A DNA stretch of 64,000 bases from a virus (IMGVR_UViG_3300029288_000056:160001-224000); one strand, 5' to 3'. Shown: positions 1,860-23,578, counted from the stretch's first letter. Translations and numbers: made by a program. Notes: a model not told the origin generated them from the letters alone.

Positions 1860-1941
1860 TGTCGAGGGAGGGAATCGAACCCTCACGCCCGAAGGCTTCG
1901 GTTTTTAAGACCGAAACGGCTGCCAATTACGTCACCCCGAC
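1860..1941 (-). tRNA. tRNA-Leu(UAA), CCA not encoded
   Basis: Reverse complement folds: acceptor GTCGGGG/CCTCGAC, anticodon arm TCGGT-CTTAAAA-ACCGA, long variable arm GCC-TTCG-GGC, T-loop TTCGATT, discriminator A. Confidence 0.95.
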
Positions 1942-2489
1942 AATTTAATATAACTTATATTCTGTTCACTAAAATACAACTCGGTTAGCGAAATTATGTT
2001 AAAATTCTTATTTTGCTTTATACAAACAACCACTTGTTCTTTTAAGAATTCATGGAGCTTACTATGTGCACTTCTTGTTACCACCAATAGATTACCAGTA
2101 ATGTTATTTGTATTATCACCATCTATATGATGGACCACTTCTCCGGTTTTAAGTTTCCTTCCTAAAATAGACTCTGCAAGTTCTCTATGCGCATATCTAT
2201 TACTCTTGCCACCATGATCATTTTTAAGCCAGCCCATATACTCATAATTATTATCACAATTATTAGAGATTGATTTTCTTAGAACATTACATTCTTGACA
2301 TAATCTTGATCCTTTACGCTGGGAGATATAATTATCACCACATGCAGCACATTGTTTATGATATATTGTATGCCCTTTTTCTAGGTATCTCTGTTTCGCC
2401 CTTTCCCTTGCATCTTTCTTATGACAATCACAGCACACTCTTCTACCGAGAGCTCTAGGCCCTCCACATTTAGTACATATTAAGTCCAA
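1932..2489 (-). CDS. HNH homing endonuclease with N-terminal Zn-finger motifs
   Basis: YAHR...VVHHIDGDNTNN...NL (HNH_3-like); CxxC pairs; AT-rich; stop TGA lies inside tRNA-Leu(UAA). Confidence 0.85.
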   Translation of the reverse strand: MDLICTKCGGPRALGRRVCCDCHKKDARERAKQRYLEKGHTIYHKQCAACGDNYISQRKGSRLCQECNVLRKSISNNCDNNYEYMGWLKNDHGGKSNRYAHRELAESILGRKLKTGEVVHHIDGDNTNNITGNLLVVTRSAHSKLHEFLKEQVVVCIKQNKNFNIISLTELYFSEQNISYIKLSG

Positions 2490-3845
2490 TTATCTTTCCT
2501 TATCTCTACAAATCGAGTCTAGTAGGTAAATTCCGTGATATTGCATCCTTCTCGCAGTTATGAGTGCTTGGCGAACAGCATTGGCAAATTCTTCAAGCTG
2601 CGACTCTTCACCTTCTGGTGAAGAGCACTCTTGACGCCAAATCCCGAAGAGGTGGCCAATAACATCAGGATAATTAAGAAGATTATTCCCTATCCTATGG
2701 AATTCTTCTCGAAGATCATCAAACCGCTTAGATATTTCCCTAGTTCTAGGTGTGTCGGGAAAAATATCCGGAGTAAGATCATAACCGGAATGACAAAAGT
2801 ACCCGTCACTGACTTCTACAATCCTGTTATCTTTAATCTCACGGATCTCTTGTAGCTTAGCATCACAAAAAACCTTGTCACCAACACTGTAGCTCATTTC
2901 TATCTCCTTTATTCTATTTATTTCTCCCCTATAATCCCAAATAAAATGGTGTAGTTTTTCCACCCGGATACAATTGATCCTTGTCTGTCTTCCAGTGCCT
3001 TAGACATTCAGTCATCATACTCATGGCGGAAAATGCAATCATACCTTTCTCATGTTCCGAAGCCGCGTCATAAATATCCTTACCATCTAGCCAATTATTC
3101 GGAAGTTGCGGCCATCCAGCATAACCCTTGGCACTCTCAAAGTATCTTATAACACTACGCATCCACTCTTGAAATGCATCATAGTGTCTAAGTTCAATAC
3201 CATTGAGGATGGTTTTGTTTAGCCCGTTATAATAGTTGTAATAACAAAGCTCTTCTGCTTTATATTCCTTTACATTATGTGGCAAATTCATTTTGTCCCC
3301 TTACTTTATTAGCCATACCTTACAGTTCCTAAACCCTTCCGGCTGATTGTCACCCAGTAAAAGGATGGTACCTCCTAGTGGATGATAGCCACGAGCTGTG
3401 TAAACCGCGATTGATCCGTCCGGAAACTCTACCAATAGCTCTGCTCCAACCCAAATATCACGGCTGCAGACCAAACACGAATTCGGCCGTGTAAACATCT
3501 TCATCTGAAACTCGTCCCATATTTCGGTGATGTTGGAGTCCTTCGTATACATCAAGTAGTCCGTAATGCCGGGAAGCAGTTTGTATTTGTCGCCCCACGT
3601 TACGATCTTATCCTCAACCTTAAGGGGTGTGCGAGTTTCGCTCTTAACTTCCAGAGATGACATAACAAGAGACAGAAACATTATCGTTAGGCACCCTATA
3701 AAAGTGAGACCTATCACGAACCCGTAAATGAACGAGTCTCGTTCTTGTGCGGTTTTCCTATCATGTAGGAGCATTAAAAATCCGACTCCTGCTATTACAA
3801 ACCCGACAAGACCAAGTATAAAAAAGTATAGTCCCACGTCTCCTC

Positions 3846-5684
3846 CTATGTTCGTTTCTGTCCGTACAATTCGAACAGAATATCACCGATTAGTTTGTCG
3901 ATCTTTCCCATGTCGTGCTCTGCTGGCAACGTGGACTTCTCGTGAGCCAGAACGATCTCATTCTCAAGATCTTCTTTCATCACAAAGATTTGGTCCAGAG
4001 TATACTCGCCGTTTTTGATTGCGATCAGTTGCTCGGCGTCGATACCCCGACGATCCACATTAATGACTCCGGTCTTGAGGGCTTCAATGCCTTGTCTCAA
4101 CATCAGCACGAGGTAGCAGGCGTTTTTACTATTGCCATGAATAGCTGGCCGTCCATTATTACGCGTAATTAACGTACCATTAGGAACATCGAAGCAAACA
4201 ATTCTATGGTCAGAAACTAGTTTTTCCTTTATATTGTAGCCCGCTTTCTTGCCGCGGGAATCATATTTTATTTCTGCGTTATGCGGCAAAAAGTTACGTT
4301 TATAAATACAATGAAAACCCTTTGTGATATTAGACTTCATAACCTGATACATAGTCGTATCACCATAGGGGCCACCCTTTGTGTCATAACCACCATATAC
4401 TACACAAGGAATACCAGCTATAATCATAATCGCTTGCAAATCATCGGCTAATCGTTTATAACTTGTATAAATTATATCATTCTGCTTTTTTCTTGTGCCA
4501 TCTCCGGCCATCCAAGCATCCCACAGTATCATGGATTGGCGTGCAGATAAATTAAAACACCATAATGGGACATGTTTATAATTTGAGCCGTTATCCCTAT
4601 TACATCCACAATCTTCTAAAATTTGTTTAGCTATTTTCCCATGTAATACCCAAACGGCGCATTTCTCATAATTATAACTTTTAATTGGAAACACACTCAT
4701 GAGATTATCTATTATCTTGCGGTATTCTCCGCATTTCTTTTGGGTAAAAGAAACACACTTAAATTGTCCGTTTTCACGAAATTGAGCAGACCCATCTGAT
4801 AAATATAAACCAACTAGTTGTATGTATTCATCAGATATGTCGTATTCTTTCTGCTTAATATTCGGTATCGTTCTAATATGAAAGCAATCATCTCTTGATT
4901 TCATAAGATTTTCTAATGATATTAATTCCCAATTAGCAGTGCTCTCATTATAAATAATAGAGTGATTATTAGACTTTTGACGATGCGCGTGGGCTAATAG
5001 TAACCTATGGTTAGGTGTTACAATCGCGCGTGAGCTATGGGTATCTATTTGATACATAAAGCCGCTATATAATTGGTCCGTTTTACTATTATAATGTTGA
5101 AATTCTAGCTCCCCATTACTAATATTGAGTGTGGCTAATCTTGTATTGGGATTTATTTCGTCAAATTTTTTCCACCCTGAATCGGTTAGAAATTCGGTTG
5201 TTACCTCTTCGTAACAGTCGTAGCCGTATTTCTCCTCGTATTCTTTTCTTACTCTTCCGCGCTCACCTTGTCTCAACTTACCGATCAGCTTTTGGTACTG
5301 ATTATAGGCAAAGCCTCTGAAAGTACCGAACAGCTTCTTAGTGATGAACAAGTCTCTATTTTCCATCAGCCTTTCCCAGATCTCGTGCTTATAAGACACG
5401 AACTCATCAGGAAAGAATAGAGTATTCAGGATGCTCGGATTCGAATTGCTCAAGAGCTTCACGTACTTTTGGATCTCATAGATTAGAACGTCGTAGTCGT
5501 CTCGTTGAATTTCTACTTGTTCCCATCTGTTAAGTTCCCAAAAGTCTTTCGGATCAAGGTAAGACACACCAAAGACGTCAGTATCGTGATGTGAAGTCTT
5601 AATGCCAAACACATCACTACCGCGATAACTCAGGAACAATGGTGTCCTGAGCGCTTCAATCTCAAATGGAATCTCTAGTTTCAT
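3846..5684 (-). CDS. Pol-beta-superfamily nucleotidyltransferase (RlaP/YcgL-like, RNA-repair associated), intein-containing
   Basis: GS-x-x-FG-x6-DTD motif, SNPSIL, KYGYD|SK..YL; interrupted by an intein. Confidence 0.8.
   Translation of the reverse strand: MKLEIPFEIEALRTPLFLSYRGSDVFGIKTSHHDTDVFGVSYLDPKDFWELNRWEQVEIQRDDYDVLIYEIQKYVKLLSNSNPSILNTLFFPDEFVSYKHEIWERLMENRDLFITKKLFGTFRGFAYNQYQKLIGKLRQGERGRVRKEYEEKYGYDCYEEVTTEFLTDSGWKKFDEINPNTRLATLNISNGELEFQHYNSKTDQLYSGFMYQIDTHSSRAIVTPNHRLLLAHAHRQKSNNHSIIYNESTANWELISLENLMKSRDDCFHIRTIPNIKQKEYDISDEYIQLVGLYLSDGSAQFRENGQFKCVSFTQKKCGEYRKIIDNLMSVFPIKSYNYEKCAVWVLHGKIAKQILEDCGCNRDNGSNYKHVPLWCFNLSARQSMILWDAWMAGDGTRKKQNDIIYTSYKRLADDLQAIMIIAGIPCVVYGGYDTKGGPYGDTTMYQVMKSNITKGFHCIYKRNFLPHNAEIKYDSRGKKAGYNIKEKLVSDHRIVCFDVPNGTLITRNNGRPAIHGNSKNACYLVLMLRQGIEALKTGVINVDRRGIDAEQLIAIKNGEYTLDQIFVMKEDLENEIVLAHEKSTLPAEHDMGKIDKLIGDILFELYGQKRT
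4131..5216 (-). mobile_element. intein with LAGLIDADG endonuclease (362 aa)
   Basis: Starts CYEEVTTEFLTDSGWK; block B VTPNHRLL; LAGLIDADG helices LVGLYLSDGS and WDAWMAGDGT; block F VCFDVPNG; ends IHGN followed by +1 Ser; visibly more AT-rich than the flanking exteins. Confidence 0.92.
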
Positions 5685-5690
5685 AGTCTT

Positions 5691-5718
5691 ATTCTATCAC
5701 ATTTCTTAGAAAAGTCAA
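5691..5718 (-). promoter_or_regulatory. sigma70-type promoter TTGACT-16-TAGAAT, -10 box 6 nt from the ATG
   Basis: GCTTGACTTTTCTAAGAAATGTGATAGAATAAGACT-ATG. Confidence 0.8.
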
Positions 5719-5724
5719 GCGTTT

Positions 5725-6255
5725 TTATAGACTCAGTATCGTAAAGGGTGGCTTAACATAACAGTCGTGTTCAACCGCGGCTTCTAGGGCCTCAATCAGT
5801 CTTTCCTCTGGTGTCATCCCAAGTACTTTGGCGGTCGTAAAAAGGGACCCTATGGAATAAAACGCTCCCGATCCTATGGCCGCATACTCCCTTGTAGACT
5901 GTACAGCTGATCCATCCTTACCCATCCAAAATAACTTTCCTTGAGTCCCTATCAGTAGTTCAACACCAAGTTCGTCGTCGTCTTTAAATTCGTGTTCCGC
6001 TAGACATTTTCGCATAGCTGCAGAGAAACTTGAGCACATGTACGAATCCAGATCCTTCTTTACTTTTGGCGGAACAAACGCGTGCCGTATAATTTGAGAA
6101 AATCTCAACAAACCTGCACAACCAATTATAAAATCACCCTTAACACAGATCTTGGGCACATTTGTTAGGGAATAAAAACCGTCCTCCCTAGAAATCATAC
6201 CGTCTGTGCCCAAATAAACTTTACCTTCACTAATGATACCTGCTATTGCTGTCAC
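5725..6255 (-). CDS. HslV/proteasome-beta-like Ntn threonine peptidase
   Basis: N-terminal M-T-A-I-A-G nucleophile context, conserved Lys (VPKI), AIGSG motif. Confidence 0.8.
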   Translation of the reverse strand: MTAIAGIISEGKVYLGTDGMISREDGFYSLTNVPKICVKGDFIIGCAGLLRFSQIIRHAFVPPKVKKDLDSYMCSSFSAAMRKCLAEHEFKDDDELGVELLIGTQGKLFWMGKDGSAVQSTREYAAIGSGAFYSIGSLFTTAKVLGMTPEERLIEALEAAVEHDCYVKPPFTILSL

Positions 6256-7171
6256 TTATCTCCTAGTCATAAAAGTAGTTTCCGTCGAATAGGGTGGGGT
6301 TCTTGTCGGACTCGCTGACGTACCCACCCGTTTCAGGGTCAAACTTGTATATGTGAGTCTTCTCGTCACCATAAGTCGCACTATAGGTAGAATCACTATA
6401 ACCGCCGCCGTAACCGCCGCCGTAACCACTCCAGCCCCCGTAAATACGGCTTTTGTAACCAAGGCTAACGGCTGCGCACATGTTATCCCAGAACTTCTTT
6501 GTAGCGTTCTTCATGTTAGCCAGACTACCCTTGAGTGAAGCCGAAGAGAAAGCGTCCAAAGAGTTGTAAATATTTCTTGACTTCATCGCGCAAGAGTACT
6601 CAGCCATCGTCATCACGGTATCGTCTGAAATATCAGTCATGGTATTCTTATCCAAAGAGAGACCGTAGTCGTATCTTGGATAAGTATACGCAGGATATGC
6701 GGGATACGATTGCTTCTTTTGCTTCTTTATTTTCTTCGCTCTGATTCTAGAGCGTATTTTCTTTCCTCGTCTTTTTCGGCTCATTATAAGCTCCTCCTCT
6801 GTAAGCTCGTCGTCAAGTCCCTCGATTAGCCAATCTACCTCGTGCGCACCATTCCCACCGTCGTCCTCACCGTCGTCCTCATAATAAAGAAGGTCGCCCG
6901 GTCTCAGTATATCGCAAGACATACAAGCCCGTCGATAGCCTTTCTCGGTTAGGATAATGTCGTAGCTCTCAACCCACGTATCGCATTGAGGGCACCGTTC
7001 TACACCCATATCAGAGGCAATGAACTCCAGCTCGAAGAGTTCCATTCCGAGCGCGTCGGCTTCCTCGAAACCCAAGTCCTGAGTTCCGATTAAAGCCCAA
7101 ACAACATCCTCAGCTTGCTCCCTCATCTTCTGTGTTATTACTGTCATCGCCATCTTTTCCCTTTCTACTAC

Positions 7172-7200
7172 AATATAACATAGAACGAGTAAAAAGTCAA
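7172..7200 (-). promoter_or_regulatory. sigma70-type promoter TTGACT-17-TATATT
   Basis: Conserved GCTTGACTTTT...TATGT-TATATT. Confidence 0.8.
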
Positions 7201-7203
7201 GCG

Positions 7204-7722
7204 TTATTTTTCAACAATTTTGCAGCACCACATATCGGCCCAGTGCAAAAGTAAAGTCATGGGTTGCTCTTTTTGAGCATAAGAAGCGTTGTCGGGAACG
7301 TAAAGCCCATCATGGGCCCGAATCGCTTGAACCTCGTCAACATTTAGATCCACCTTTCCAGCCAACAGATGAAGGCTTCGTGTCGGGGTATCTATGTACG
7401 TCAGCGCGGCGTTTACTCTGTGTGCCTTCCCGTCCCACAAATACAGAGGCTTGCCCGGTTCGCCCACCTTCCCGAGGTCGTGAAACAGTCCGCAAATAAC
7501 ACAGGACTCGTCGGTTATTTCGGGTCTCATCAGGTTCTTAAGTTTTAACACGGTCTCTGTCACGTTAAGAGAATGGACTATAAGCCCGCCCGGTTGGCAA
7601 CAATGGAATTTCGTGGATGCGGGAGCTGTCTTCCAAACAGTGTTTTGGTTCAACCAATTTAGGAAGTTTACGACCTGCTCTTTGCGCGGGCCCAACATCT
7701 CAACTAACTGTTCGATATGCAT
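7204..7722 (-). CDS. HD-domain phosphohydrolase (YhaM-like HD module)
   Basis: PAS-x-x-FH...GGL-x-x-HS, FHDLGK, HDG, HWAD. Confidence 0.85.
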   Translation of the reverse strand: MHIEQLVEMLGPRKEQVVNFLNWLNQNTVWKTAPASTKFHCCQPGGLIVHSLNVTETVLKLKNLMRPEITDESCVICGLFHDLGKVGEPGKPLYLWDGKAHRVNAALTYIDTPTRSLHLLAGKVDLNVDEVQAIRAHDGLYVPDNASYAQKEQPMTLLLHWADMWCCKIVEK

Positions 7723-8012
7723 TTTTCTCCTTCATAGAGTTCTATTGTTATTCTTACTTTACGATCACCGTTAATGATCTCAAATACACGCGGTCCCTCG
7801 GTCATAATTTTCCAGCCTTCGTATCCTAAAGCCGTCACGCCGTTGGGGTAACGAAAACTGTCGCCAATAAGGATTTCTCCGATACATTCATCAATCTCGC
7901 GCCTTACATTCCAAATTTGCTTTACTGCGTCACTATTATTCGCAAGTAACTTATACTTCTCTGGTACCTTTACATCGTAGGTAAATTCACCCATCTTAAT
8001 CACCTCCAAAAC

Positions 8013-8033
8013 AAAAAACAGCCGTGCGGCTGT
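8013..8033 (-). terminator. intrinsic terminator
   Basis: ACAGCCG/CGGCTGT inverted repeat followed by a T-run on the minus strand. Confidence 0.55.
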
Positions 8034-9237
8034 CTTTATGGGTTGTGTAAAATTTAGTTTATGCCGCTATCACCTATAACAATATTATAAGTGAAATATC
8101 CCATCAAAGTCCTTTCTTGATCTCCACTGAAGGAGCGCTCTCATTAACATGTTTTCCTTAGATTTGGTGTACTCACTGATCGTCGTTAGATCGCCTATCC
8201 GGCTTGCTAAGTCGGCTAGGGCTTTTTGATAAGCTGAAGCCTTAGGGTTGTCGGTCCTAATGAGTACCATGTTTTCCAGTATCTCAGCCCTATTTAGCTG
8301 CCACATTAACAGTATAATTCTGCCCACGAGGTATTCTTCAAACGCGTTTTCGGCCACATAGACCGTTCTTACCGCATTCGCAAAATCCTTAAACATCCTC
8401 TCATCCTCTACATCAGGCAACACGACATTGTGTGGTACAAATAACTTAATTCTCGGCTTGTTACGCGACCGTGCTACAGGACCATTGATCGCGTTTCGTA
8501 TATCTTCGGCGGTTGCTTTTTGTGCTTCTTGAATCTCTTGAGGTTGAGAAGGGACAAGGTCTTTACTCTCTTGTTCTTCTTCGGACATAACACACAGTCT
8601 AAGTTATAAACACATTTAAAGTCGACACGGTTAATCTTCTTCATTTTCTTCAGAAATTTCTGCAGAATCTTCATGTCTAAGTTGTTCACAGGTTTTTGGA
8701 ATAACAAATGCTTCAAAACGATATCCCTTGCCTGTCTCTGGCCTATGAGATATTGCGGTTCGCAATTTTCCATTATTAACAGCTATGGGTATTCCGAGTC
8801 CACCAATGACGGCGGTCTTATCGGCGTCAACATAACACCAAGATCGCTTACATTTGCAGTAGACTTTTTCTTTTCCACTGATGGCGCGAACATCTTCGCA
8901 ATCAGGGCAATACAGTAGTTTCATAATTAACCTTCTATTTTCGGTTTTCTTGTGTATTTTCTCTTCTTAACCGCTTCCACGGGTACTTCGGTTTTTTCAG
9001 GCTCAATCTCTCTATTTCCAACGACCTTGGGTCTACAGAAGTTGAGCTTATTTTTTTCATGGCTACAGCGGCCGGTTTCGTCCATATAGAACTGGCATGC
9101 CGGTCGTCTATGCGGTTTGGTTGAAGAGATAACTTCTGGATTTTCACCAATAGCCTCTAGAAAATCACAGTGATACACGAATAGATAATTGTTAAACATA
9201 GTCTTCCTCCTACACGGTTACGTATCTTCACGATACA

Positions 9238-9492
9238 CTAAATTCTTCTCTTTATAATAGAAATATCATTTGTATAAACAGGGTGTATTTCACCTGTACT
9301 AGTTGCCCATATAATATCACAGTAATAATACCCCGGTGATACATTTGTTTCGGTAGGTGTGAGATTAAATATGGCTACACCCTGACTACCTCTGGTAGTG
9401 ACGTCAGCATTTTTAGTTAAAATAATATTAAAATAAAGACCATTGTTGATAAATGGGTATAAAAATACACCCTTTTTAGAGGGTGTATTATA
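9238..9492 (-). pseudogene. start-less reading frame resembling a BppU-like baseplate protein fragment
   Basis: Open frame with no ATG/GTG/TTG encoding ...GVAIFNLTPTETNVSPGYYYCDIIW... Confidence 0.4.
9461..9489. terminator. terminator-like hairpin downstream of def
   Basis: AATACACCCT/AGGGTGTATT 10-bp stem with an A/T run. Confidence 0.7.
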
Positions 9493-9511
9493 TCATCGGG
9501 GAAAACTGTTT

Positions 9512-10042
9512 TTAATTAGTTTTTAATTGCTCTATTCGCTTCCTCAGCTGCCGCACCATGTTACCAACCTTGATGCGTTCCATCGTGCTGATTCTCTCAA
9601 GCATCGTTATTCCGTTAAGGTGGTCAACTTCATGATACGCAATACGCGCTTCAAACTCTGTAAACTCGGTTTGAACCCTGTTACCACTGATGTCGTTAAA
9701 CTCAACCGTCAGTTTGGTGGGTCGCTGCACTGTTATGTAAAGGTCGGGAAAACTAAGGCATCCCTCGTAGTCCCTGATCTTTATTCCGTCTTCACTGATG
9801 ATTGTCGGATTTGTCAGTGTGGCGTACCCGACAACCTCGTAGCTGTCTTTAACCGGCTTTACTCTGGCCACGATGCACATTTGTTTGTTTATGCCGATCT
9901 GATTCGCAGCTAGCCCCATCGCTTTCTTTTCAAGAAAGACACTGACCAGCTCTTTTTCAAGTTCAGCCACGGTCTCGTCAAAGGCCTCAATTGGCTGACA
10001 GACTTCTTTTAGGATAGGATCTCCAAAGTACCTAAGTGGCAT
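9512..10042 (-). CDS. def: peptide deformylase
   Basis: GLAANQIG, EGCLS and HEVDHLNG motifs; start at MPLRYFGDP after AAAGGG. Confidence 0.95.
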   Translation of the reverse strand: MPLRYFGDPILKEVCQPIEAFDETVAELEKELVSVFLEKKAMGLAANQIGINKQMCIVARVKPVKDSYEVVGYATLTNPTIISEDGIKIRDYEGCLSFPDLYITVQRPTKLTVEFNDISGNRVQTEFTEFEARIAYHEVDHLNGITMLERISTMERIKVGNMVRQLRKRIEQLKTN

Positions 10043-10211
10043 TTTTACCCTTTCTGTTTTCGTATCGGTTTCCACACCCGACTCCGCTCAGAAGTGTGTG
10101 TACTTCGTCGCACATATGGATATTGGTAGTATAAAATGAATTGCAGCTCATTCTATAGTACCTCACAACATATTTCAACCAAAGCCCTGCAAGGCTCACG
10201 AAAACAGTCTA

Positions 10212-10240
10212 ATACTATCATAAACTTGTGCAAAAGTCAA
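10212..10240 (-). promoter_or_regulatory. sigma70-type promoter TTGACT-17-TAGTAT
   Basis: Conserved motif copy. Confidence 0.8.
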
Positions 10241-10248
10241 GCGTTATT

Positions 10249-11700
10249 TTAAACCTCAACCCCGTAAACGTCGCTCCAGTCGTCCATTGTCAAGACTGGT
10301 GTACAAATTCCGTTTGCGTCGGGTGCGATTTCAATCTCATCATCAAGGAATATGTCGGCCCGGTTAATGATTTTTCCAGCACTGATGGTGAACAAGCTTT
10401 GTGATGCCCCAGAACCGGATCTCATTTGACCTACTGAAAACGGAGAGGCTCCAACGAAGGACCCGTTAACTATCCACTTACCGTAACCGGACTTTCCGCC
10501 TTCTGACGGTCTGTGGAAATGGCCTATCTTGGTGTACTTCGGTGGTCTTCCTGTGAGCTCAGCAAACTGTCCGATTGCTCTATCAAGGCCGTAATAAGGG
10601 AACTGCAGGTGGGAACGGATACTGTCACCATGGAAGATAAGGTGTCTCTTGCCCGGGAACTCAGGTATCTCGTAGATCAGACCTTCGCCGGTAGAGACAT
10701 AGATGTTTACCCCTTCACACGGCTTAGACCCTCGCCAAGGCAGAAACATACGTTGAAGATTTCTGTAAACGGCGTAGTCAAAGTTGCTGCGTTTGTGATG
10801 ATTCTTGTTCGTCCTTCCGTGGTTTCCATAGACGCAAAAGATGTCTATTGGAATATCCGGGTAGCGCTCAGCAACAGACCCAATGACGCGCGCCAGCTCG
10901 TCGCAAGCCATATACATTGCGTCAAAAGGCTCGAGATCTAAGTACCGTTGTTGGCCGGGATAGATGTCTATACCTTCAATGAAGTCGCCGAGTAAGTCAA
11001 TGACAATTCTAGACGGCATATAGCCGGTATCGAGCGCGTCTTGAATCTTGTGGAAGTGCTCGATCCATCGGTCAACTTTTTGCGGAATGATCTTTGAGTT
11101 GTATTCCCACATTCCCAAAACGTCGCCAGACTTGAAACATTCACCAATTTGCCAATCACCCAAGAGACAGTTCGTGACAAACTTGCCGTCTGTGTGTCGT
11201 GTCTCTTTGCGCTTAATTCTTAAACGTGACGGTCTTCGCAACGACGCTCGAAGGATGGCGTCATCAAATCTAGCCCACCAATTCACGAGTTCATCGTTCT
11301 TTTTACGAAGTCTTTCAATTTCGTCCCAATAAGGGCGTAGGCCCTCGTCGTCTTCGTAACCGATGTCTCGCGCTTTCTCTCTCAGGCTGTTTAAAGACCT
11401 GCCGTAAAAACCTTCTTCAAATATTTGCTTACACTTGTCATTAATTGATCCTGAAATAGAGTTAAGCTTTCCCCTAAACTCTTCTTCTTGTTCGTCAGTC
11501 CACGTCAACCCCGCATAGTTGTCGTTTTCAAAGTCGTTTCCAATACCTAATACCGCGATGCGCTTTTCAATCGACTTATACGACCGATCTAATACTCCTG
11601 AATTAGCTAGGTTGATACATTTTTCAGTCTTCGTTCTTCCTGTTACGGTTGGATAATGCTCTTTTAATAAACAATCTTCTTCTTCGGTCCATAAATTCAC
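10249..11700 (-). CDS. calcineurin-like metallophosphoesterase with N-terminal Myb/HTH-like repeats
   Basis: GDWQ, GDFIEG, GNHG, HGD, GHFH; WTEEED/WTDEQE repeats at the N-terminus. Confidence 0.8.
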   Translation of the reverse strand: MNLWTEEEDCLLKEHYPTVTGRTKTEKCINLANSGVLDRSYKSIEKRIAVLGIGNDFENDNYAGLTWTDEQEEEFRGKLNSISGSINDKCKQIFEEGFYGRSLNSLREKARDIGYEDDEGLRPYWDEIERLRKKNDELVNWWARFDDAILRASLRRPSRLRIKRKETRHTDGKFVTNCLLGDWQIGECFKSGDVLGMWEYNSKIIPQKVDRWIEHFHKIQDALDTGYMPSRIVIDLLGDFIEGIDIYPGQQRYLDLEPFDAMYMACDELARVIGSVAERYPDIPIDIFCVYGNHGRTNKNHHKRSNFDYAVYRNLQRMFLPWRGSKPCEGVNIYVSTGEGLIYEIPEFPGKRHLIFHGDSIRSHLQFPYYGLDRAIGQFAELTGRPPKYTKIGHFHRPSEGGKSGYGKWIVNGSFVGASPFSVGQMRSGSGASQSLFTISAGKIINRADIFLDDEIEIAPDANGICTPVLTMDDWSDVYGVEV

Positions 11701-11750
11701 TATAAAACTCCTTGTATAGGTTATACTCTACTTAACACGATCTAAGTAAA

Positions 11751-12083
11751 TTAGTCCCAAATTATATACGGTAAAGCTAAATTGTATTTTAATACGTTAT
11801 CTACGTAAACATCGATCTCGCACTTACTGTTTGGAACAGTAACATCTTGAGACGCACCGGAATGAGCCTTTAAGACGAATTTTAAAGTCTTATAGTCCTC
11901 AAACACCGTGCTATCTTCCTCGGCCGCCGTGATGTAGATTTCAATCTTCGAGTCCACGTCGGAGGAGTTCATCATCTTAACATGTAGCACAGTAGTCTTG
12001 TCGCTATTGTAAGACGGGGACAAAGAAATATACTCTGCGAATGTAAACGAGAATAACAACAATAGAATGGCTAGTATCTTCAT
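11751..12083 (-). CDS. exported protein with signal peptide
   Basis: MKILAILLLLFSFTFA-E; start corrected to exclude the tRNA-Ser overlap. Confidence 0.6.
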   Translation of the reverse strand: MKILAILLLLFSFTFAEYISLSPSYNSDKTTVLHVKMMNSSDVDSKIEIYITAAEEDSTVFEDYKTLKFVLKAHSGASQDVTVPNSKCEIDVYVDNVLKYNLALPYIIWD

Positions 12084-12100
12084 ATTATCACTTCCTTTTG

Positions 12101-12189
12101 CGGAGAACGCAGGACTTGAACCTGCAAGGCGCAGTTGAATACGCCGGTGGACTTCCAATCCACTGCCTTACCAATTAGACTAGTTCTCC
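12101..12189 (-). tRNA. tRNA-Ser(GGA)
   Basis: Acceptor GGAGAAC/GTTCTCC, anticodon arm GTGGA-TTGGAAG-TCCAC, long variable arm, T-loop TTCAAGT, G73. Confidence 0.93.
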
Positions 12190-12713
12190 TATCCGAAACT
12201 TTCTTGCTCAACCAGATCTCTTAGTTTCTTTTTCAGCGCTATGGCGTCCGTGGTGAGCTTGTCGTCATCTTCTTTGGCATATTCAAACCAAATAAGACAA
12301 AAGTCTTGTTGAAACTCAAACCACGCCGTTATCATGTCTTTATGATGTCCAATGATGCCGCAATGAGGATACTCGCAAATCCACAAATCGTTTTCCTTGT
12401 ACATTTTCACTAAAATCGGTTCATAAAAATAAAGCCTAACAGTGTTATCCGTCACCATTGATATTTCATTATCGCCGCTTTTTATAACTTCCTTAACTAC
12501 TTCAACTTCAGGTTCATCCATCCATAATTTCTCCATGTTTAGCCCTAAATGGCGCGACATACGAAAAGCAAACTCAGATTGTATATTAGGAACTACACCT
12601 TCCGCGTCTAACTCATAGTCTTTCCACCAATCCGGCAAAACATATTCAAGTAGCCATTCCTTAGTATAACCGGCTTTAGATAAACAATCGTACATTTTTT
12701 GTAATTCTATCAT
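12189..12713 (-). CDS. hypothetical protein
   Basis: 174-aa ORF in operon context; the last base of its TAG stop is G1 of tRNA-Ser(GGA). Confidence 0.65.
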   Translation of the reverse strand: MIELQKMYDCLSKAGYTKEWLLEYVLPDWWKDYELDAEGVVPNIQSEFAFRMSRHLGLNMEKLWMDEPEVEVVKEVIKSGDNEISMVTDNTVRLYFYEPILVKMYKENDLWICEYPHCGIIGHHKDMITAWFEFQQDFCLIWFEYAKEDDDKLTTDAIALKKKLRDLVEQESFG

Positions 12714-13063
12714 AATACGGGCTCCGCTTTTTCTTCTCCTGTAATTATATACTTAAACGGATATTCTTCTTTTGGTTCAACATAAACAAAGGTCTTTTCT
12801 GTGTCAGAAAACACCCAACCTCCGCATTTACTACAGTCTCTTGCGGGATTCCAGCAATTACAACTCATATGAACTCCTTTAAAAATAGTTAGGTGGTGTG
12901 CTAACCTGCGACCTCTTTCAGCTAACATCTTCTCCTAAATCTTACGGCGGCTGGACATGATGGTGAATCTCTTTTGGCCAATCCCGAACGCTCAGTCCTT
13001 TTGGAATGCACTGTGAATCTTACCTAGGCAATTCACAGGAGAGCCATCGTTCCGTAACCATTG

Positions 13064-13145
13064 CGGAGGAAGAGGGATTTGAACCCCCAAGCCCTTGCGG
13101 GCGGCAGATTTCAAGTCTGCTGCGTTACCGTTACGCTATTCCTCC
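13064..13145 (-). tRNA. tRNA-Ser(UGA)
   Basis: Acceptor GGAGGAA/TTCCTCC, GCAGA-CTTGAAA-TCTGC, variable arm GCCC-GCAA-GGGC, T-loop TTCAAAT, G73. Confidence 0.95.
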
Positions 13146-13603
13146 AGAACTCTATGGAATATCTCTTGTTCTATTTCCCATTATTCCTCCTGTGATCTAA
13201 CTTCTGATACTGCCGTTATCTGTAGGTCGTACTTGAGTGTAACAACAAGCCCGTCTTCCGATAGTTTACACTCATCATTAGGACAGAAGAACGGAAACTC
13301 ATCTTCACCCCATAGATTGTTGGGCTCTTGATCTTCAATCTCTATTCTTATTTCGGTGCCGCATTTAGGGCACTTAACGATTAAGTCGTAAGGTGTGTCT
13401 AAATACTTCACTCTGTCCATATCGATTTTGCGGTCTGTGCGAATTATAGTAGTTATCGGTTTTGCAATACAATCATGAGTTGGTTGGTTGATAGTGCACC
13501 CACCGCATTCCATCATATTAGTGCAATTATAGACCGCGTATAATCCTGCAAACTCACCCATGTAAGGGCACTTATACTTTATTTCTTCCATTAGATCTCC
13601 TTT

Positions 13604-13685
13604 CGGAAGACGCTGGATTTGAACCAACATGGCCTTGCGGCCGCCGCTGTTCGGGAGCGGTGTCTTACCGTTAGACTAGTCTTCC
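13604..13685 (-). tRNA. tRNA-Ser(CGA), atypical C33
   Basis: Acceptor GGAAGAC/GTCTTCC, CCGCT-CCCGAAC-AGCGG, variable arm GGCC-GCAA-GGCC, T-loop TTCAAAT, G73. Confidence 0.88.
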
Positions 13686-14384
13686 TTATTCTTCTCGCTC
13701 ATCAACGATCTCCAATATCTTCTTCATAACTTCAGATCCCACCGTTAGTGGTGTCTCCCACCACAGGCTTGGGGTACGGCAAGTACCGTACTTAAACCAA
13801 AGCGGAGCGGCTTGCCAAGCTGGTATCTCACTTATTATCTCAAGCCTTTCCTTAGTCGTTACATTCATCAGCTCTTTGTGAGACAATTGCGAACTGGCAA
13901 ACATGCTTATTGCGTTCTTAATCGCATCGCGGCTTCGCCAAACGAAGTAGTTACCTACGTCCTCAGTCGGTACGTTAAAAACTCTAGCATCAAATGTTGC
14001 ATTACTGACTGGGCTTAAAGCACCATCCACCACTTTAAGTATCTCACTGTTAAAAGCCGCAGTTACAATAGATGCGGTAACAGAGGCTATTTTCTGAGTC
14101 CTACCAGCGAACCAATTTTCACTTTCGAATGTTCGGTAGTTCTTCACGAAGATAGATATCTCATCTGACTGTATGAACGCAATTTCTGCACCCATAATAC
14201 TCTGCATGGCGCTCTTCGCTGCTTCACAAAGAGCCTCGTGTATTCTTAAATCATACGGGTGTTGAAACCTCTTACAATAAGTGTGGAAACACCTACCATC
14301 AACACGAATCATTACGGGAGTGCGCGGCATAAGAACGCCGTCGGCACTCTTCTCGTACGCCTTCATCCTGTCAGATAGTTCCAT
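13686..14384 (-). CDS. Thg1-like 3'-5' nucleotidyltransferase (TLP)
   Basis: RMKAYE, RVDGRCFH, QSDEIS, FDARVF, YFVWR-x-x-DA-x-KN. Confidence 0.93.
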   Translation of the reverse strand: MELSDRMKAYEKSADGVLMPRTPVMIRVDGRCFHTYCKRFQHPYDLRIHEALCEAAKSAMQSIMGAEIAFIQSDEISIFVKNYRTFESENWFAGRTQKIASVTASIVTAAFNSEILKVVDGALSPVSNATFDARVFNVPTEDVGNYFVWRSRDAIKNAISMFASSQLSHKELMNVTTKERLEIISEIPAWQAAPLWFKYGTCRTPSLWWETPLTVGSEVMKKILEIVDEREE

Positions 14385-14847
14385 GGTCCCCTCCTAGTAG
14401 TTCCAACATTCTTTTGTTTCCGGTTTTCTTGCACTCTTCTATAATATGTTTCATAATCGCCTCACGAAGATCCTTTTCATACTTCCATTCTGCTTTCCGG
14501 CCTAATGAACACCCGATAGTCTCGGTGAAGAATGAAGGATGATCGTAACGCACATGCGGGCAGTCTTCACAATAAGGAGTACAAGCAATGTATTTGTTGA
14601 AAGGCGGCTTAAAGATCGCATCCCGCACCTCTTGTATTGTTCTGTACACCTCGTCTAGCTTCGCGCCGCAAAAAGGACAGTAGTTCAGTATGAATGCTTC
14701 GGTAGCGACGTTACCATATTCGACTCTAGTTGCGAATACGCGGCACTTCCTACCCTTGCTGTCTTTAAAATCGTCATCTCTGATGTGCCCTGCAAGCATC
14801 ATCATCGTCATACCTTCACAACAGTTTTCCATTTTTACTCCTTTAAT

Positions 14848-14933
14848 TGCCGGAGGCGAGAGTCGAACTCGCACGCCCTTGCGGGCACTTGCTTCTAAGG
14901 CAAGCGGGTCTGCCTAAGTTCCCCCACTCCGGC
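14848..14933 (-). tRNA. tRNA-Leu(UAG)
   Basis: Acceptor GCCGGAG/CTCCGGC, CTTGC-CTTAGAA-GCAAG, variable arm GCCC-GCAA-GGGC, T-loop TTCGACT, A73. Confidence 0.95.
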
Positions 14934-15402
14934 ATTTCTTTCCAGCGCCACTATTATTGGGTTCTAATGCGTGGCAATTTGGGCATAAAATTTCTAAATT
15001 TTCCAATCTATTATCACTAGCTACACCATTTTTATGATGTATTTCCAGTGGAATATTTCTTCCCATCCAGTTATCTAATCCACATAATTCGCATTTTCTT
15101 TCTTTTAATCCGTCCTCAAAAAGTTTGTTTTTAAGTTTATAAGAGCTAACACAACTAGATGTTTCTATATAACATAACGCACTCATTTTATGGGGAGACG
15201 TATACCCTTTATGCCCCATATTCCCGGCATAAACTATTCCAAGTCTTTTAAGATGAGAATTTAAAGTAATTGGTCTACAATTAAATTCCACACACATAGA
15301 CGCCTTACTTCTATTCTCTGCTACCCACTGTTTTATTTCGTCTGCTCTTTCTAAAATATCAGTTCTCAAATATCTATTCCTTTTTAAGCTTGCCATCCAC
15401 AA
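14914..15402 (-). CDS. HNH endonuclease
   Basis: CELCG...LEIHHKNG..SDNRLENLEILCPNCH; AT-rich; TAG stop lies 20 nt inside tRNA-Leu(UAG). Confidence 0.9.
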   Translation of the reverse strand: MWMASLKRNRYLRTDILERADEIKQWVAENRSKASMCVEFNCRPITLNSHLKRLGIVYAGNMGHKGYTSPHKMSALCYIETSSCVSSYKLKNKLFEDGLKERKCELCGLDNWMGRNIPLEIHHKNGVASDNRLENLEILCPNCHALEPNNSGAGKKCRSGGT

Positions 15403-15943
15403 GTCTCCCTAACTCTGCGGCCACCGCTAAGTCGTCCGATTTAACATACATATTCATAATGTCGCGGATCCTAATCGCGTCTTCCTTCCGTACAATCAGT
15501 TCGTAATCAACCATATGGTACTTGCGGTGATTCCACACGTATTTGATGGCTTCCCAAATTCTTTTAAAAACTCCGTCGTTCTCAATCGTTTGCATCCTAA
15601 CGATTGGCTCGTCAACAACTTGCCAACCACTCTCATAGGCTTTCTTCTCGTATTCTATGATCATTGCATGGCCTGTATCATAACAAGCACACCAAATCGT
15701 CTCGCGCACATACTCGGTCTCACCCGGAGATTCTGGTGTTCCGTCCGACAACAGGCCGTTAGGTTCAGTTCTTATTTCCACGACTCTCCCTTATTTTTTC
15801 TACTCTCGCTATAACTTCATCGTATTCGTCATCTTCAAATAAACTCATAATGCGATTCCATTCTGCAATACTGACGCCGAGCCGCTCAAGTGTGTCCTCT
15901 AACATGGCCCTCATCTCGTCTTTTTCTTTCCTAGTAAAACAAC

Positions 15944-16294
15944 TCATTTTACTACTCTAACATCGCCTAAACGATCTCCGCCATGTTCATAAATCTGGAA
16001 TCTTCCCTCGATATGAGATCCGACCGGTGCTCTCTCGATAACCCTGTCGTCGTACATCTCATAGTTACCGACCGTAGTCTTAATGTACCCACAATTAGTG
16101 CGATTAAAAAGTCCACCAGTATTCCAACTGAAGCGGGCCTCTAACACCGTACCTAAGTCTCGCCATTCATATACTGGCTCGGGCATGTTGCAGCCACCAC
16201 TTAAAGCAAAGATCCAAAGGCCGACGAATACAACCAATATAAGGATCGCAAATGCAACATTAAACACTTCGTCTAACATAGTCATCCTTTCCAA
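15944..16294 (-). CDS. membrane-anchored small protein, dispersed WxDLGTV/TxxGNY family
   Basis: Hydrophobic N-terminus ending GGC; EWRDLGTVL, IKTTVGNYE. Confidence 0.6.
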   Translation of the reverse strand: MERMTMLDEVFNVAFAILILVVFVGLWIFALSGGCNMPEPVYEWRDLGTVLEARFSWNTGGLFNRTNCGYIKTTVGNYEMYDDRVIERAPVGSHIEGRFQIYEHGGDRLGDVRVVK

Positions 16295-16341
16295 CTCGTA
16301 AGGATTACTTACAAGTTCAAAAACTAGTGTTGGTCAAGCTT

Positions 16342-16666
16342 TGGAAGCGCCGGGTACTGCCCCCGGGTCCGATAAAAGGCTCCTACAAAATTCACTCACA
16401 AGCTTAGCATCTACCTGATGCAAGGTACTAACTTTTTTGTTTTGCCACTTAATTTCGCAACAAGACCGTGGCCTTCTCATTGCTAGATTGTTTTCCGAGC
16501 GTTACTCCTGCCAACAATCAATTTCGGGTAACGCCCTAGTTTCAAGAACTAGGAAGTAGTTTTTAGGCTGCTTTTATTGTTCTGTCGGTTCTTTAACGAC
16601 CACTCCAACAGAAAGGTCGGCTTGCATTCTGTATCTCCATTCTACCGTCGAATCTGAGTCGCTCCC
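16342..16666 (-). ncRNA. ssrA: tmRNA, one-piece, tag frame GCA-GCC-TAA
   Basis: 5' GGGAGCG-ACTCAGATTCGACGG; 3' GGAC-CCGGG-GGCAGTA-CCCGG-CGCTTCC-A; G3.U70 pair; PK1 stems CGACC/GGTCG and TTCTGTTGG/CCGACAGAA; dedicated promoter upstream. Confidence 0.92.
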
Positions 16667-16683
16667 TTTTTAATTCTATAGAT

Positions 16684-16712
16684 AGTTTATCACACTTCTA
16701 CGCAAAAGTCAA
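16684..16712 (-). promoter_or_regulatory. sigma70-type promoter of the tmRNA, TTGACT-17-TAAACT
   Basis: Conserved motif copy; the -35 box overlaps the HNH stop codon. Confidence 0.8.
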
Positions 16713-17344
16713 GCGTTATTTTCATTTAAAACAGAGTTTAATATCACAGTATTTTGAAATAAATATTCAAATTGCTCCTCTTTACCATAAGTTTTAAGAT
16801 GGCATTCTCTACATAATGTAATTCCATTGTTAACATCAAGTCTTAAATATGGATATTGAGTAAACCCCTTGATGTGATGTACCTGTATTTTTTTATTTGA
16901 GTAACATGATTGACAAATATAATAATCTCTCTTTCTAATCCAATATTGCCATCGCTGATATTCAAAACTTTTTCTAATTTGTTTTTCTTCTGGCGTAATA
17001 CCACCTTTCCAATTATGGTGATTTTTACCAGAATGTTTTTCTTTAACCCTCGAATCCATCCATGATTCTCTAACCCCATTTCTTGCATTTTCTATTTGTT
17101 CTTTTGTTAAAATCCTCCCTTTTAATGTATCACTTATTCTTTTACGAGTTTCTTCAGAAACTATTCTATCCTTTGCTATTTTACCAATCTTTTCGCGGGT
17201 TTCTGGTGTATGTTTTCTGCCCAAATGCCATTCTCTATTCTTTTGTTTTGTTTCTGGCGATTGATGTTTACCCCTATTACTATGCCCATTAATAAATCTT
17301 CTCCCGGGTTTTGCATCTTCTCCACACCCGCATTCGCACTTCAT
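16709..17344 (-). CDS. HNH homing endonuclease with NUMOD3-like repeats
   Basis: CECGCG; GKHQSPETK and GRKHTPETREKI repeats; NWKGG; VHHIK...NNGITLCRECH. Confidence 0.88.
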   Translation of the reverse strand: MKCECGCGEDAKPGRRFINGHSNRGKHQSPETKQKNREWHLGRKHTPETREKIGKIAKDRIVSEETRKRISDTLKGRILTKEQIENARNGVRESWMDSRVKEKHSGKNHHNWKGGITPEEKQIRKSFEYQRWQYWIRKRDYYICQSCYSNKKIQVHHIKGFTQYPYLRLDVNNGITLCRECHLKTYGKEEQFEYLFQNTVILNSVLNENNA

Positions 17345-17958
17345 TTATACATTGCCCTTATGGTTCCCAGAGTTGTTGTTTCTATATTAGAATTACCCGC
17401 ATTGGTTATTAAGGCGCGAGCAGTTCCTTTTCCATAATTAGGATGCTCCCAACCATCCCCTATATTTGCCCAATCATAAGGGCCGAAACCGGTATTATCC
17501 ACACCAAAAGCATCACAGTTTGGATAATCATACAAGAAACAAATGCCAATTAAAAATTTCCCAGAACATCCTATGGTTAAATTAAACTGAGGTTCAATAA
17601 CTTGTGTAATCCAATTACCACCAATATTTGGATTGTATATCAACTGTCCATTAATTGGCCAAATTATATCTGTAGGCACATTATTAATTACATTCCAACA
17701 ACCAACGCTAAAGCCCTGATAAGTGCTGTCGGGCCAACCCTGTGACCAAACATAATACTTGATGCCCTCAAGATACCAATTGGGAATTTCGTCTTCAACT
17801 GGTGGAACATCATATTGGTCGCCAACATATGAATTACTACCAACCATCGGGAACCAAGCATTGGCAATATTACCGTTATCTCGCGATAATTCACCTTCGA
17901 TTAAATATCCAAAACTTAATCCAATTATCATTAGTACTAATATTATAATCTTTTTCAT
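17341..17958 (-). CDS. exported protein with C-terminal IETTTLGTIRAMYK motif
   Basis: Signal peptide MKKIIILVLMIIGLSFG; beta-rich body; characteristic C-terminal tail. Confidence 0.65.
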   Translation of the reverse strand: MKKIIILVLMIIGLSFGYLIEGELSRDNGNIANAWFPMVGSNSYVGDQYDVPPVEDEIPNWYLEGIKYYVWSQGWPDSTYQGFSVGCWNVINNVPTDIIWPINGQLIYNPNIGGNWITQVIEPQFNLTIGCSGKFLIGICFLYDYPNCDAFGVDNTGFGPYDWANIGDGWEHPNYGKGTARALITNAGNSNIETTTLGTIRAMYK

Positions 17959-18169
17959 TCTCTCTCCTTAATATTCATCTTCGTCCTTCTTGTTTCTTTC
18001 TCTCCACTCACCGTATTCAGATTGTGAAATCATCGCCCCTGTAACCAGAAGCACACCTAAGAACCACAATGAATCCCAACCCACCGAAAAATGAACACAT
18101 CCTATACCAGTCCACAAAACGATTGAGTTGATAACTACCCACCACCAACGTTTCATCTTTCCTCCTTTT

Positions 18170-18251
18170 TTGCCCCGAAGGGAGTTGAACCCTTATGCCC
18201 GAAGGCACTGCGTTTTGAGCGCAGCACGTCTTCCAATTTCGTCACAGGGCA
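18170..18251 (-). tRNA. tRNA-Leu(CAA)
   Basis: Acceptor TGCCCTG/CGGGGCA, CTGCG-CTCAAAA-CGCAG, variable arm TGCC-TTCG-GGCA, T-loop TTCAACT. Confidence 0.9.
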
Positions 18252-18419
18252 CTAAACTAGAATTATTCTAAAATGTTCTATCGCATGCTTAGCGAATACG
18301 TTGGCCGCCTTTACCACATGGCTTCCAAAAGGGACCGCTATGTCGATATTCGCGTCATAGATCAGCCATCCTACCATCAATGCGACGATTATGGCCGCTA
18401 AAGCGATAAGTCTTTTCAC
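18252..18419 (-). CDS. small membrane protein (55 aa, not in ORF track)
   Basis: GAGGA SD, GTG start, MKRLIALAAIIVALMVGWLIY...; TAG stop flush with tRNA-Leu(CAA). Confidence 0.55.
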   Translation of the reverse strand: MKRLIALAAIIVALMVGWLIYDANIDIAVPFGSHVVKAANVFAKHAIEHFRIILV

Positions 18420-18592: not shown

Positions 18593-18620
18593 ATTGTAAC
18601 ATACTTATCCTAAAAGTCAA
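18593..18620 (-). promoter_or_regulatory. sigma70-type promoter TTGACT-16-TACAAT
   Basis: Conserved motif copy. Confidence 0.75.
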
Positions 18621-22379: not shown

Positions 22380-23578
22380 GCAGCTTTTTCTATCATTGGA
22401 CCATCAACGACGAAGTTCGTTTGTGAAGTGTTGGGCAGGTCGTAAATCCAATTCACAAGGACCCTCTCAAGTATTGATCTCAAACCACGTGCTCCTGTGT
22501 TTCGTTCAACTGCTTCCTCTGCAATCATTTGCAGTGCTTTGTCTCTAAATTCCAGCTTTTTACCCTCACTAGCAAATAGCCATTGATACTGCTTGACCAA
22601 TGCGTTCTTAGGTTCGGTCAAGATTTGTATCAACTCATCGCGGCTTAGTTTGTTAGTCGAGGTTATAATCGGAAGCCGGCCTATCAACTCCGGTATAAGT
22701 CCGAAGCTATGAAGATCGTCCGGCTCCAGTTGAGTTATAAGCTCATTAAAGTCGTCGCCTTTCTTGGGCGCGAGTTTGGAACCGAACCCGATAACCGTTT
22801 CTTTGCAGACTCGTTTTTTAATGACGTCTTCAATCCCTTCAAAACTGCCGCCGCAGATAAACAAGATCTTGCTGGTGTCGATCTGAATACACTCTTGTTG
22901 TGGGTGTTTACGCCCACCTTGAGGTGGAACACTTGCAATCGTCCCCTCTAATATCTTTAACAACGCCTGCTGCACACCTTCCCCTGAAACATCACGAGTA
23001 ATAGAGGCGTTTTCCCCTTTGCGACCGATCTTGTCAATTTCGTCTATGTAGATGATTCCCTTCTCTGCCCGATCAATGTCATAATCGGCGTTCTGGATAA
23101 GTCTGACTAGAACGTTTTCAACGTCGTCACCAACGTAGCCCGCCTCAGTAAGGGTCGTAGCGTCGGCGATTGCGAAAGGAACGTTCAATTTCTTTGCGAG
23201 GCACTGAGCTATCAGAGTCTTGCCTGTCCCTGTAGGACCAGTGATTAAGACGTTGGATTTTTCACATTCGATATCCTCAAACCCTTCAACTACGGGAGAG
23301 AGAATGTGTTTGTAGTGTTTGAATACGGCGACGGCCACATCTCGCTTTGCTCTTTCTTGACCGATAACGTACTGATTGAGGTACTCATGAATAGCGCGAG
23401 GAGTAAAGTCGTCACCTATCTCAATAGTAGTCTCGTCTTTCTTGGTGAATCTCTTTCTTAATTCCACTTCACCTAAAACCATCATGTCATTAAAACAATG
23501 TCCACAATAAAGGCCTAGGGGTGTAGACACTTCTACTGGCTCTTGGTTGCAAATACTGCATAAAATTTTTTCGCTCAC
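22376..23578 (-). CDS. clpX: ATP-dependent Clp protease ATPase subunit ClpX
   Basis: N-terminal C4 Zn domain, [12 protein letters not shown] pore loop, [18 protein letters not shown] loop, IGF loop, GARGLR. Confidence 0.97.

Follow-up and report, generated by a model that had tools for sequence, protein, structure and literature searches.

Why do the genes that stand in front of transfer RNA (tRNA) genes in a phage genome close exactly at, or even inside, those tRNA genes? The question is raised by a stretch of viral DNA of 64,000 nucleotides (nt), hereafter the window, which comprises bases 160001-224000 of the 297,328-bp record IMGVR_UViG_3300029288_000056 of the IMG/VR database (completeness estimate 94%). 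A reading of the window from its sequence alone had noticed that five of its six tRNAs begin at the stop codon of the upstream open reading frame (ORF). It had proposed that tRNA maturation strips these stop codons from the messages and feeds the products to a transfer-messenger RNA (tmRNA) and a ClpX protein encoded by the phage itself. We find that another explanation is to be preferred, with a probability of roughly two in three: the stop codons at or inside the tRNA 5′ ends are the counterpart, at tRNA genes, of the overlaps between ordinary genes in a very tightly packed genome, combined with the docking of homing nucleases beside tRNA genes.

Stop codons at the tRNA 5′ ends and the packing of the genome

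ARAGORN and Infernal agree on six tRNAs in the window, all on the minus strand and all for Leu or Ser. Their ends were taken from Infernal with the Rfam models and then compared with the sequence nucleotide by nucleotide. For two of the tRNA-Leu genes ARAGORN starts 1 nt further upstream; the Infernal ends, on which the sequence-only reading had also relied, were preferred because U8, A14 and the G1-C72/A73 pairing favour them. The tRNAs and the ORFs in front of them are:

1860..1941, minus strand: tRNA-Leu(UAA) (Rfam tRNA 51.4 bits; ARAGORN)
1932..2489, minus strand: HNH endonuclease ORF, 185 amino acids (Pfam HNH_3, E=3.5e-10; PHROG HNH families)
12101..12189, minus strand: tRNA-Ser(GGA) (Rfam 53 bits)
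12189..12713, minus strand: ORF of 174 amino acids, no family match (sequence and profile searches)
13064..13145, minus strand: tRNA-Ser(UGA) (Rfam 64 bits)
13604..13685, minus strand: tRNA-Ser(CGA) (Rfam 50.1 bits)
13686..14384, minus strand: Thg1-like protein, 232 amino acids (Pfam Thg1, E=4.8e-30)
14848..14933, minus strand: tRNA-Leu(UAG) (Rfam 50.8 bits)
14914..15402, minus strand: HNH endonuclease ORF, 162 amino acids (Pfam HNH/HNH_3)
18170..18251, minus strand: tRNA-Leu(CAA) with a U1-A72 pair (Rfam 50.1 bits)
18252..18419, minus strand: small ORF, 55 amino acids (from the sequence)

The HNH gene at 1932-2489 ends with a TGA (1934-1932) that forms positions 8-10 of tRNA-Leu(UAA), an overlap of 10 nt, and the TAG of the HNH gene at 14914-15402 (14916-14914) corresponds to positions 18-20 of tRNA-Leu(UAG), an overlap of 20 nt. 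For the ORF at 12189-12713, the final G of the TAG stop codon doubles as G1 of tRNA-Ser(GGA). The TAA of the Thg1-like gene is flush with base 1 of tRNA-Ser(CGA) and the TAG of the ORF at 18252-18419 is flush with U1 of tRNA-Leu(CAA). The sole window tRNA with a real spacer is tRNA-Ser(UGA), which lies 35 nt behind the stop codon of the ORF at 13181-13630. The geometry given in the sequence-only reading, with five of the six tRNAs beginning at the upstream stop codon, was thus confirmed, and its remark that the next gene start usually lies close behind the tRNA also held, with a Shine-Dalgarno sequence and ATG about 13-21 nt past the tRNA 3′ end in four of the six cases. Contigs from three DNA runs were identical to the window, with neither variants nor alleles lacking the HNH genes; the two other metagenomes in which the phage occurs show the identical sequence. 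No RNA run was listed as containing the sequence (window positions 11700-19000). The phage is known from landfill and groundwater sites.

The frequency of these overlaps can be compared with the packing of the genome as a whole. Nearly all genes lie on the minus strand, and the 39 tRNAs, none of which encodes CCA, are spread over more than 250 kb. We collected all junctions at which a same-strand ORF ends at most 35 nt from a tRNA 5′ end (n=20). Eight of these 20 overlap (40%) and three are flush, with a median gap of 0; the overlaps measure 1, 2, 10, 10, 10, 15, 20 and 26 nt, the largest belonging to a doubtful 52-codon ORF. Close junctions between two coding sequences (CDS) overlap in 174 of 310 cases (56%), many of them by 8-20 nt, with a median gap of -1. 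The two types of junction did not differ significantly (Fisher p=0.17, Mann-Whitney p=0.61). Stop codons inside tRNAs are no commoner than the genome's own gene-gene packing predicts, and CDS-CDS junctions are as tight or tighter. Genome compaction, which had been named beside the proposed circuit as the alternative, is therefore sufficient, since the frequency of overlaps equals that of general gene-gene packing.

The tRNA sequences also define where an incoming frame will close. TAG, TAA or TGA is present at positions 8-10 in 24 of the 39 tRNAs, and a gene reading into such a tRNA therefore closes at once. Frames entering a tRNA close mostly at +10 or +15, which fits the observed overlaps of -10 (three times), -15 and -20. 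According to the explanation that we prefer, the tRNAs would sit singly within long minus-strand operons, where a gene in front of a tRNA could do without a stop codon of its own. The UAG, UAA or UGA at positions 8-10, often followed by another at 13-15, would close its frame within 1-26 nt, and the borrowed stop would add only a short, unconserved tail.

Two further ideas about the junctions were rejected. Recoding of stop codons found no support: table-11 ORFs cover 93% of the genome, and a suppressor tRNA was not found. Restoration by the Thg1-like protein of tRNAs 5′-truncated by a cut past the stop codon was dismissed by reasoning, as templated repair could restore only the 7-nt acceptor strand and the overlaps in question are of 10-26 nt.

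Some observations on individual tRNA loci may be added. The longest ORF at L010:2856-4007 (genome 234856-236007) engulfs tRNA-Asp (genome 235808-235880); the actual start probably lies past the tRNA, and the case exemplifies how ORF callers mishandle CDS-tRNA junctions. A tRNA-like gene of 92 nt (L011:5480-5571; genome 265480-265571) scores 34 bits with Rfam, and ARAGORN gives it a two-base anticodon and no assignment. A spike in the depth of metagenome contigs at 12553-13139 is caused by unrelated contigs that match the conserved tRNA-Ser(UGA) and does not stem from the phage.

Nuclease genes beside tRNA genes

Two of the window genes with a stop codon inside a tRNA encode nucleases, which had been called potentially toxic. 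Both were confirmed as HNH proteins (Pfam and PHROG), and the Thg1 assignment of their neighbour holds as well (Pfam). The window contains another gene of this type near the tmRNA:

16709..17344, minus strand: third HNH ORF with NUMOD3 and HNH domains (Pfam), ending 42 nt before the tmRNA gene with its own stop codon

The HNH ORFs 1932-2489, 14914-15402 and 16709-17344 sit against tRNA or tmRNA genes and not in an intron or intein. Six of the twelve HNH-domain ORFs of the genome have a tRNA or tmRNA gene at a distance of 50 nt or less, as compared to 11% of all ORFs (p=0.0009); three are located upstream and three downstream. That two nucleases occur among the overlapping genes is explained by this docking of HNH genes on both sides of tRNA genes. 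HNH and GIY-YIG genes have been documented within phage tRNA clusters (PMC2330249; PMC6409571), and the two nucleases would be free-standing HNH genes of the homing type that settled beside tRNAs, like the genes of SegB in T4 and of the F-Tfl nucleases in T5.

A homolog of the HNH protein encoded at 14914-15402 is found in Erwinia phage Cronus (Tevenvirinae; AWD90574), with 51% identity over 144 residues. The alignment stops at residue 155 of 162, beyond which the protein described here has 7 residues and the Cronus protein 3. The tail encoded within the tRNA, CRSGGT, lies past the end of the Cronus homolog and is therefore an unconserved add-on. The Cronus gene (L020:1462-1995) likewise adjoins tRNA-Leu(UAG) within a cluster of tRNAs, the gaps to its neighbours being 2-3 nt. 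Unlike the window gene, it follows tRNA-Leu(UAG), 2 nt downstream, and closes with its own stop codon 3 nt before tRNA-Tyr. Comparison of the two loci suggests that the HNH family common to both phages targets the tRNA-Leu(UAG) gene or travels with it.

The arrangement had been put forward as an undescribed system, but the same layout is annotated in phage T5 (AY543070). There, too, HNH genes and small ORFs on one strand are interspersed with tRNAs, which stand alone or a few together. The T5 genes hegD (F-TflII) and hegC (F-TflI) end 23 nt inside tRNA-Gln(CUG) and 14 nt inside tRNA-Ser(GGA), respectively, the end of T5.069 overlaps tRNA-Asn by 24 nt, and T5.065 adjoins tRNA-Lys without gap or overlap; tRNA-Ser(GGA) is among the overlapped tRNAs in both phages. 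The likeness is one of gene layout, and T5 differs in that it has neither tmRNA nor ClpX and carries its tRNAs in one region of about 13 kb instead of spread over the genome.

The loss of a stop codon by tRNA maturation is an earlier idea as well. In phage T4, segB is a free-standing homing endonuclease gene in the tRNA operon that is transcribed within the tRNA precursor, and a cut between its last sense codon and its stop codon during maturation of tRNA-Arg was proposed to lower SegB expression (Brok-Volchanskaya et al. 2008, PMC2330249). According to the same paper, reduced expression through processing of the transcript has likewise been proposed for the T5 F-Tfl nucleases. SegB differs from the window nucleases in being a GIY-YIG enzyme and in having its stop codon 5 nt before tRNA-Arg (T4 record) and not inside it. 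Homing by SegB was shown experimentally, whereas the HNH genes described here are of the homing type as judged by their domains. In the selB-selC loci of Proteobacteria and Nitrospirae, an ORF ends inside a same-strand tRNA gene or spans it, and folding and processing of the tRNA were proposed to repress formation of the full-length protein (Mukai 2021, PMC8124441). Those loci are cellular, involve a single locus and have a functional link between protein and tRNA, whereas in the phage no relation exists between the tRNA and the genes in front of it.

The T4 and T5 proposals lead to the question whether the overlaps were selected for attenuation, with tRNA maturation cutting off the stop codon or 3′ end, destabilising the message and limiting potentially harmful homing nucleases, without a rescue system specific to the phage. 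Apart from the published segB and F-TflI/II/IV cases and the analogous selB-selC model, the shared layout of T5 hegC and hegD argues for this possibility, and so does the fact that three of the eight overlapping ORFs genome-wide encode nucleases (two HNH, one endonuclease-I-like). The latter is an endonuclease-I/Holliday-resolvase-like ORF of 289 amino acids (L010:1046-1915; genome 233046-233915) that ends 15 nt inside tRNA-Gly(UCC) and thus adds a third nuclease gene that borrows its stop codon. However, no nuclease can be recognised in the remaining five of the eight, three other HNH genes are situated on the downstream side of tRNAs, out of reach of such a mechanism, and the HNH gene located 42 nt upstream of the tmRNA retains a stop codon of its own, as does the Cronus homolog before tRNA-Tyr. 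Since, in addition, the overlaps are no more frequent than those of ordinary gene pairs, we regard selection for attenuation as unlikely, although it deserves some weight.

Possible transcription across the junctions and predicted ends of the messages

Whether stop codons would be lost depends on transcription of ORF and tRNA in one message. The genome contains a very uniform promoter family of the sigma-70 type with an extended -10 element, consisting of TTGACTTTT, a spacer of about 10 nt and TRTGWTAnnnT. In the whole genome the motif occurs 44 times on the minus strand, as compared to 0.85 expected, and 4 times on the plus strand, and it appears to mark the starts of operons. Examples of copies in the window, identified by motif match, are:

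5691-5718, minus strand: promoter motif copy
7172-7200, minus strand: promoter motif copy
10212-10240, minus strand: promoter motif copy
16684-16712, minus strand: promoter motif copy
18593-18620, minus strand: promoter motif copy

In agreement with the sequence-only reading, none of the 44 copies of this one promoter class stands directly before any of the six window tRNAs. The nearest copies are 342-4495 nt upstream, the shortest distance being that between the copy at 18593..18620 and tRNA-Leu(CAA), with two small ORFs in between. Furthermore, there is a single strong minus-strand terminator in the region 1-20000 (8037-8014). Without dedicated strong tRNA promoters and with this one terminator, co-transcription of ORFs and tRNAs is plausible.

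The tRNAs could instead be transcribed from separate promoters located internally, near the end of each upstream ORF, or the long transcripts could be processed slowly, so that intact messages dominate and few nonstop messages arise. A weak sigma-70-like match (9/12) at 14977-14950, ending 17 nt before tRNA-Leu(UAG), and the strong promoter located 10 nt upstream of tRNA-Gln elsewhere in the genome (136565-136635) are compatible with such starts, and the search covered one promoter class. Matches of 9/12 are, however, barely above the expectation from shuffled sequence (62 versus 42), the strong motif is absent in front of all six window tRNAs, and a start belonging to the tRNA itself would not spare read-through transcripts from processing. 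We consider this scenario improbable.

Cleavage by ribonuclease P (RNase P) at position +1 would strip the stop codon from three window genes and from seven or eight genes genome-wide, which follows logically from the geometry. The predicted RNA ends after cleavage for the three window genes are ...AAA UU, ...AAA U and ...GGA UA, exactly as the sequence-only reading had listed them. Its deduction that three genes yield nonstop messenger RNAs (mRNAs) is therefore sound as far as the logic of the junctions goes, but the idea itself had been proposed before (PMC2330249).

The arrangement resembles tRNA punctuation in mitochondria, where tRNAs split the coding regions of polycistronic transcripts with almost no spacer. 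It differs in that the phage DNA encodes the stop codons in full, in part within the tRNA, and in that transcription and processing in the phage are deduced from sequence. By analogy with mitochondria, cleaved messages ending in U or UA might be completed to UAA by 3′ adenylation. The ends ...AAA U (HNH 14914-15402), ...GGA UA (ORF 12189-12713) and ...U (genome 126733) would indeed give UAA on addition of A. With overlaps of 1-2 nt this fit is bound to occur, U being the first base of all stop codons, and at the remaining four or five junctions the outcome would be UUA, AAA, GUA or AUA. In addition, the only PolyA_pol-family enzyme of the phage scores as a CCA-adding enzyme (302 bits) and not as PcnB (173 bits). 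Stop completion by polyadenylation was rejected, as the three of seven cleaved junctions that can be rebuilt to UAA are automatic or due to chance and all stop codons are complete in the DNA; we attach next to no probability to it.

If ORFs and tRNAs are co-transcribed, RNase P cleavage would convert some of the upstream messages to nonstop mRNAs. These would most likely be a by-product that is tolerated, or would at most dampen expression of the gene upstream a little, and they may be handled by the ribosome rescue of the infected cell, to which the phage tmRNA may add capacity.

The phage also encodes a set of proteins for RNA repair and tRNA care, comprising an RlaP-like nucleotidyltransferase, the Thg1-like protein, two RNA ligases and the CCA-adding enzyme (window 3846-5684, 13686-14384, 25470-26672 and 39279-40385; L038:568-1935). 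Together with the 39 tRNAs that lack CCA, this gene content would fit a phage that replaces or repairs tRNAs under host attack.

The tmRNA, ClpX and relatives of the phage

The proposed circuit further involves two components encoded in the window:

16341..16666, minus strand: phage tmRNA (Rfam RF00023, 72.9 bits, full length)
22376..23578, minus strand: phage ClpX, 400 amino acids (NCBIfam ClpX equivalog, 544 bits; cut-off 359)

The tmRNA was missed by ARAGORN in spite of its Rfam score. Its tag frame (16563-16571), read by alignment to the family consensus and from the AAUA-NNN-GCA context, consists of the resume codon GCA (16571-16569) followed by GCC and UAA. The resulting tag (A)AA comprises two codons and keeps just the terminal Ala-Ala of the canonical ...LAA. 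The gene has a strong promoter of its own, the motif copy at 16684..16712 on the minus strand, which ends 18 nt upstream and of which the -35 hexamer overlaps the stop codon of the third HNH gene. ClpX, encoded 5.7 kb away from the tmRNA, is complete, with an N-terminal Cys4 (Zn-finger-like) motif and the GYVG, RKH and IGF loops. Its C-terminus reads ...IEKAA and thus has an Ala-Ala end, like the tag that the neighbouring tmRNA would add.

Searches of the 94%-complete genome gave no match to ClpP (PF00574) and none to SmpB (PF01668). Four small translationally coupled ORFs downstream of clpX (21016-22379) have no Pfam match up to E=1, and the possibility that they hide a ClpP was rejected for that reason. 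Without ClpP and SmpB a tmRNA-ClpX route is not self-contained and would depend on the host.

Relatives allow a comparison of overlaps with the presence of tmRNA. A blastn search of the phage collection gave only short matches to tRNA and HNH genes and no close relative. The nearest relative found is a 392-kb genome (G001; Thg1 45% identity) that has a tmRNA (L021:1504-1901) with a 26-residue tag ending in PLAA and lacks ClpX. This genome is loosely packed, with a CDS-CDS median gap of 32 nt and CDS-tRNA gaps that mostly range from +4 to +45, and no more than one of its overlaps is credible. Conversely, a 196-kb genome without tmRNA (G002) has a CDS-CDS median gap of 3 and CDS-tRNA overlaps of 1 and 10 nt. 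Because of this pair, CDS-tRNA spacing is seen to track the packing of each genome and not the presence of tmRNA. In this small sample, overlaps are no commoner in tmRNA-bearing phages, an outcome that the sequence-only reading had named as refuting its proposal: T5 and G002 have them without a tmRNA, and G001 has a tmRNA and almost none. In Cronus no tmRNA exceeds the Rfam cut-off, and ClpX and tmRNA do not co-occur across the relatives.

The circuit as first proposed, in which tRNA excision yields nonstop mRNAs, the phage tmRNA adds (A)AA to their products and phage ClpX removes these, is very improbable. The junctions are real, the tmRNA is full-length with a strong promoter, and ClpX with its IGF loop is intact and nearby. 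Against the proposal stand its need for host ClpP and SmpB, the lack of enrichment over gene-gene packing and the distribution of overlaps and tmRNAs described above, in particular the long-tag tmRNA of G001, which is accompanied neither by ClpX nor by more than a trace of overlaps. Nothing in the analysis ties the tmRNA or ClpX to the tRNA junctions, and a bare AAA tail as ClpX degron is an assumption. Of the sequence-only reading as a whole, the geometry, the promoter layout compatible with co-transcription and the logic of stop loss stand, whereas its novelty and the self-contained tmRNA-ClpX circuit are not supported.

Several points nevertheless weigh against explanation by packing and docking. 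Compaction leaves unexplained why a two-codon-tag tmRNA with a strong promoter and a full ClpX occur within 8 kb. The absence of any avoidance of stop-in-tRNA overlaps could mean that the phage tmRNA buffers them. Co-transcription of the window tRNAs with the upstream ORFs, although plausible, is deduced, as is the fate of the messages. The gene starts used in the packing comparison came from a simple, crude in-house ORF caller. Finally, the Thg1 loci of relatives have at most 45% identity and no tRNAs nearby, and their DnaE loci at most 37%, which is too distant for the overlaps to be followed.

These points leave some room for a joint reading in which tRNA-punctuated operons shed nonstop messages and the strongly promoted (A)AA-tag tmRNA is kept to clear stalled ribosomes, the two being functionally coupled. 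The products would then either be marked for phage ClpX and host ClpP or be spared the full degron of the host. We hold this coupled reading, in both of its variants, to be doubtful and its probability to be small. In the literature no paper was found that links nonstop mRNAs made by RNase P to phage tmRNAs, and the paper on huge phages merely lists tmRNAs among translation genes. If true, the link to tmRNA and ClpX would be the first functional role for a phage tmRNA, but the present evidence does not favour it.

What the junctions do provide is a concrete ground for the old T4/T5 idea that tRNA maturation throttles the upstream gene. In the explanation by packing and docking, stop codons borrowed from the next tRNA would arise regularly in tRNA-rich phages, through tight packing and the docking of homing nucleases. 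Genes with such borrowed stops matter for annotation, as they tend to be left out or shortened by pipelines.

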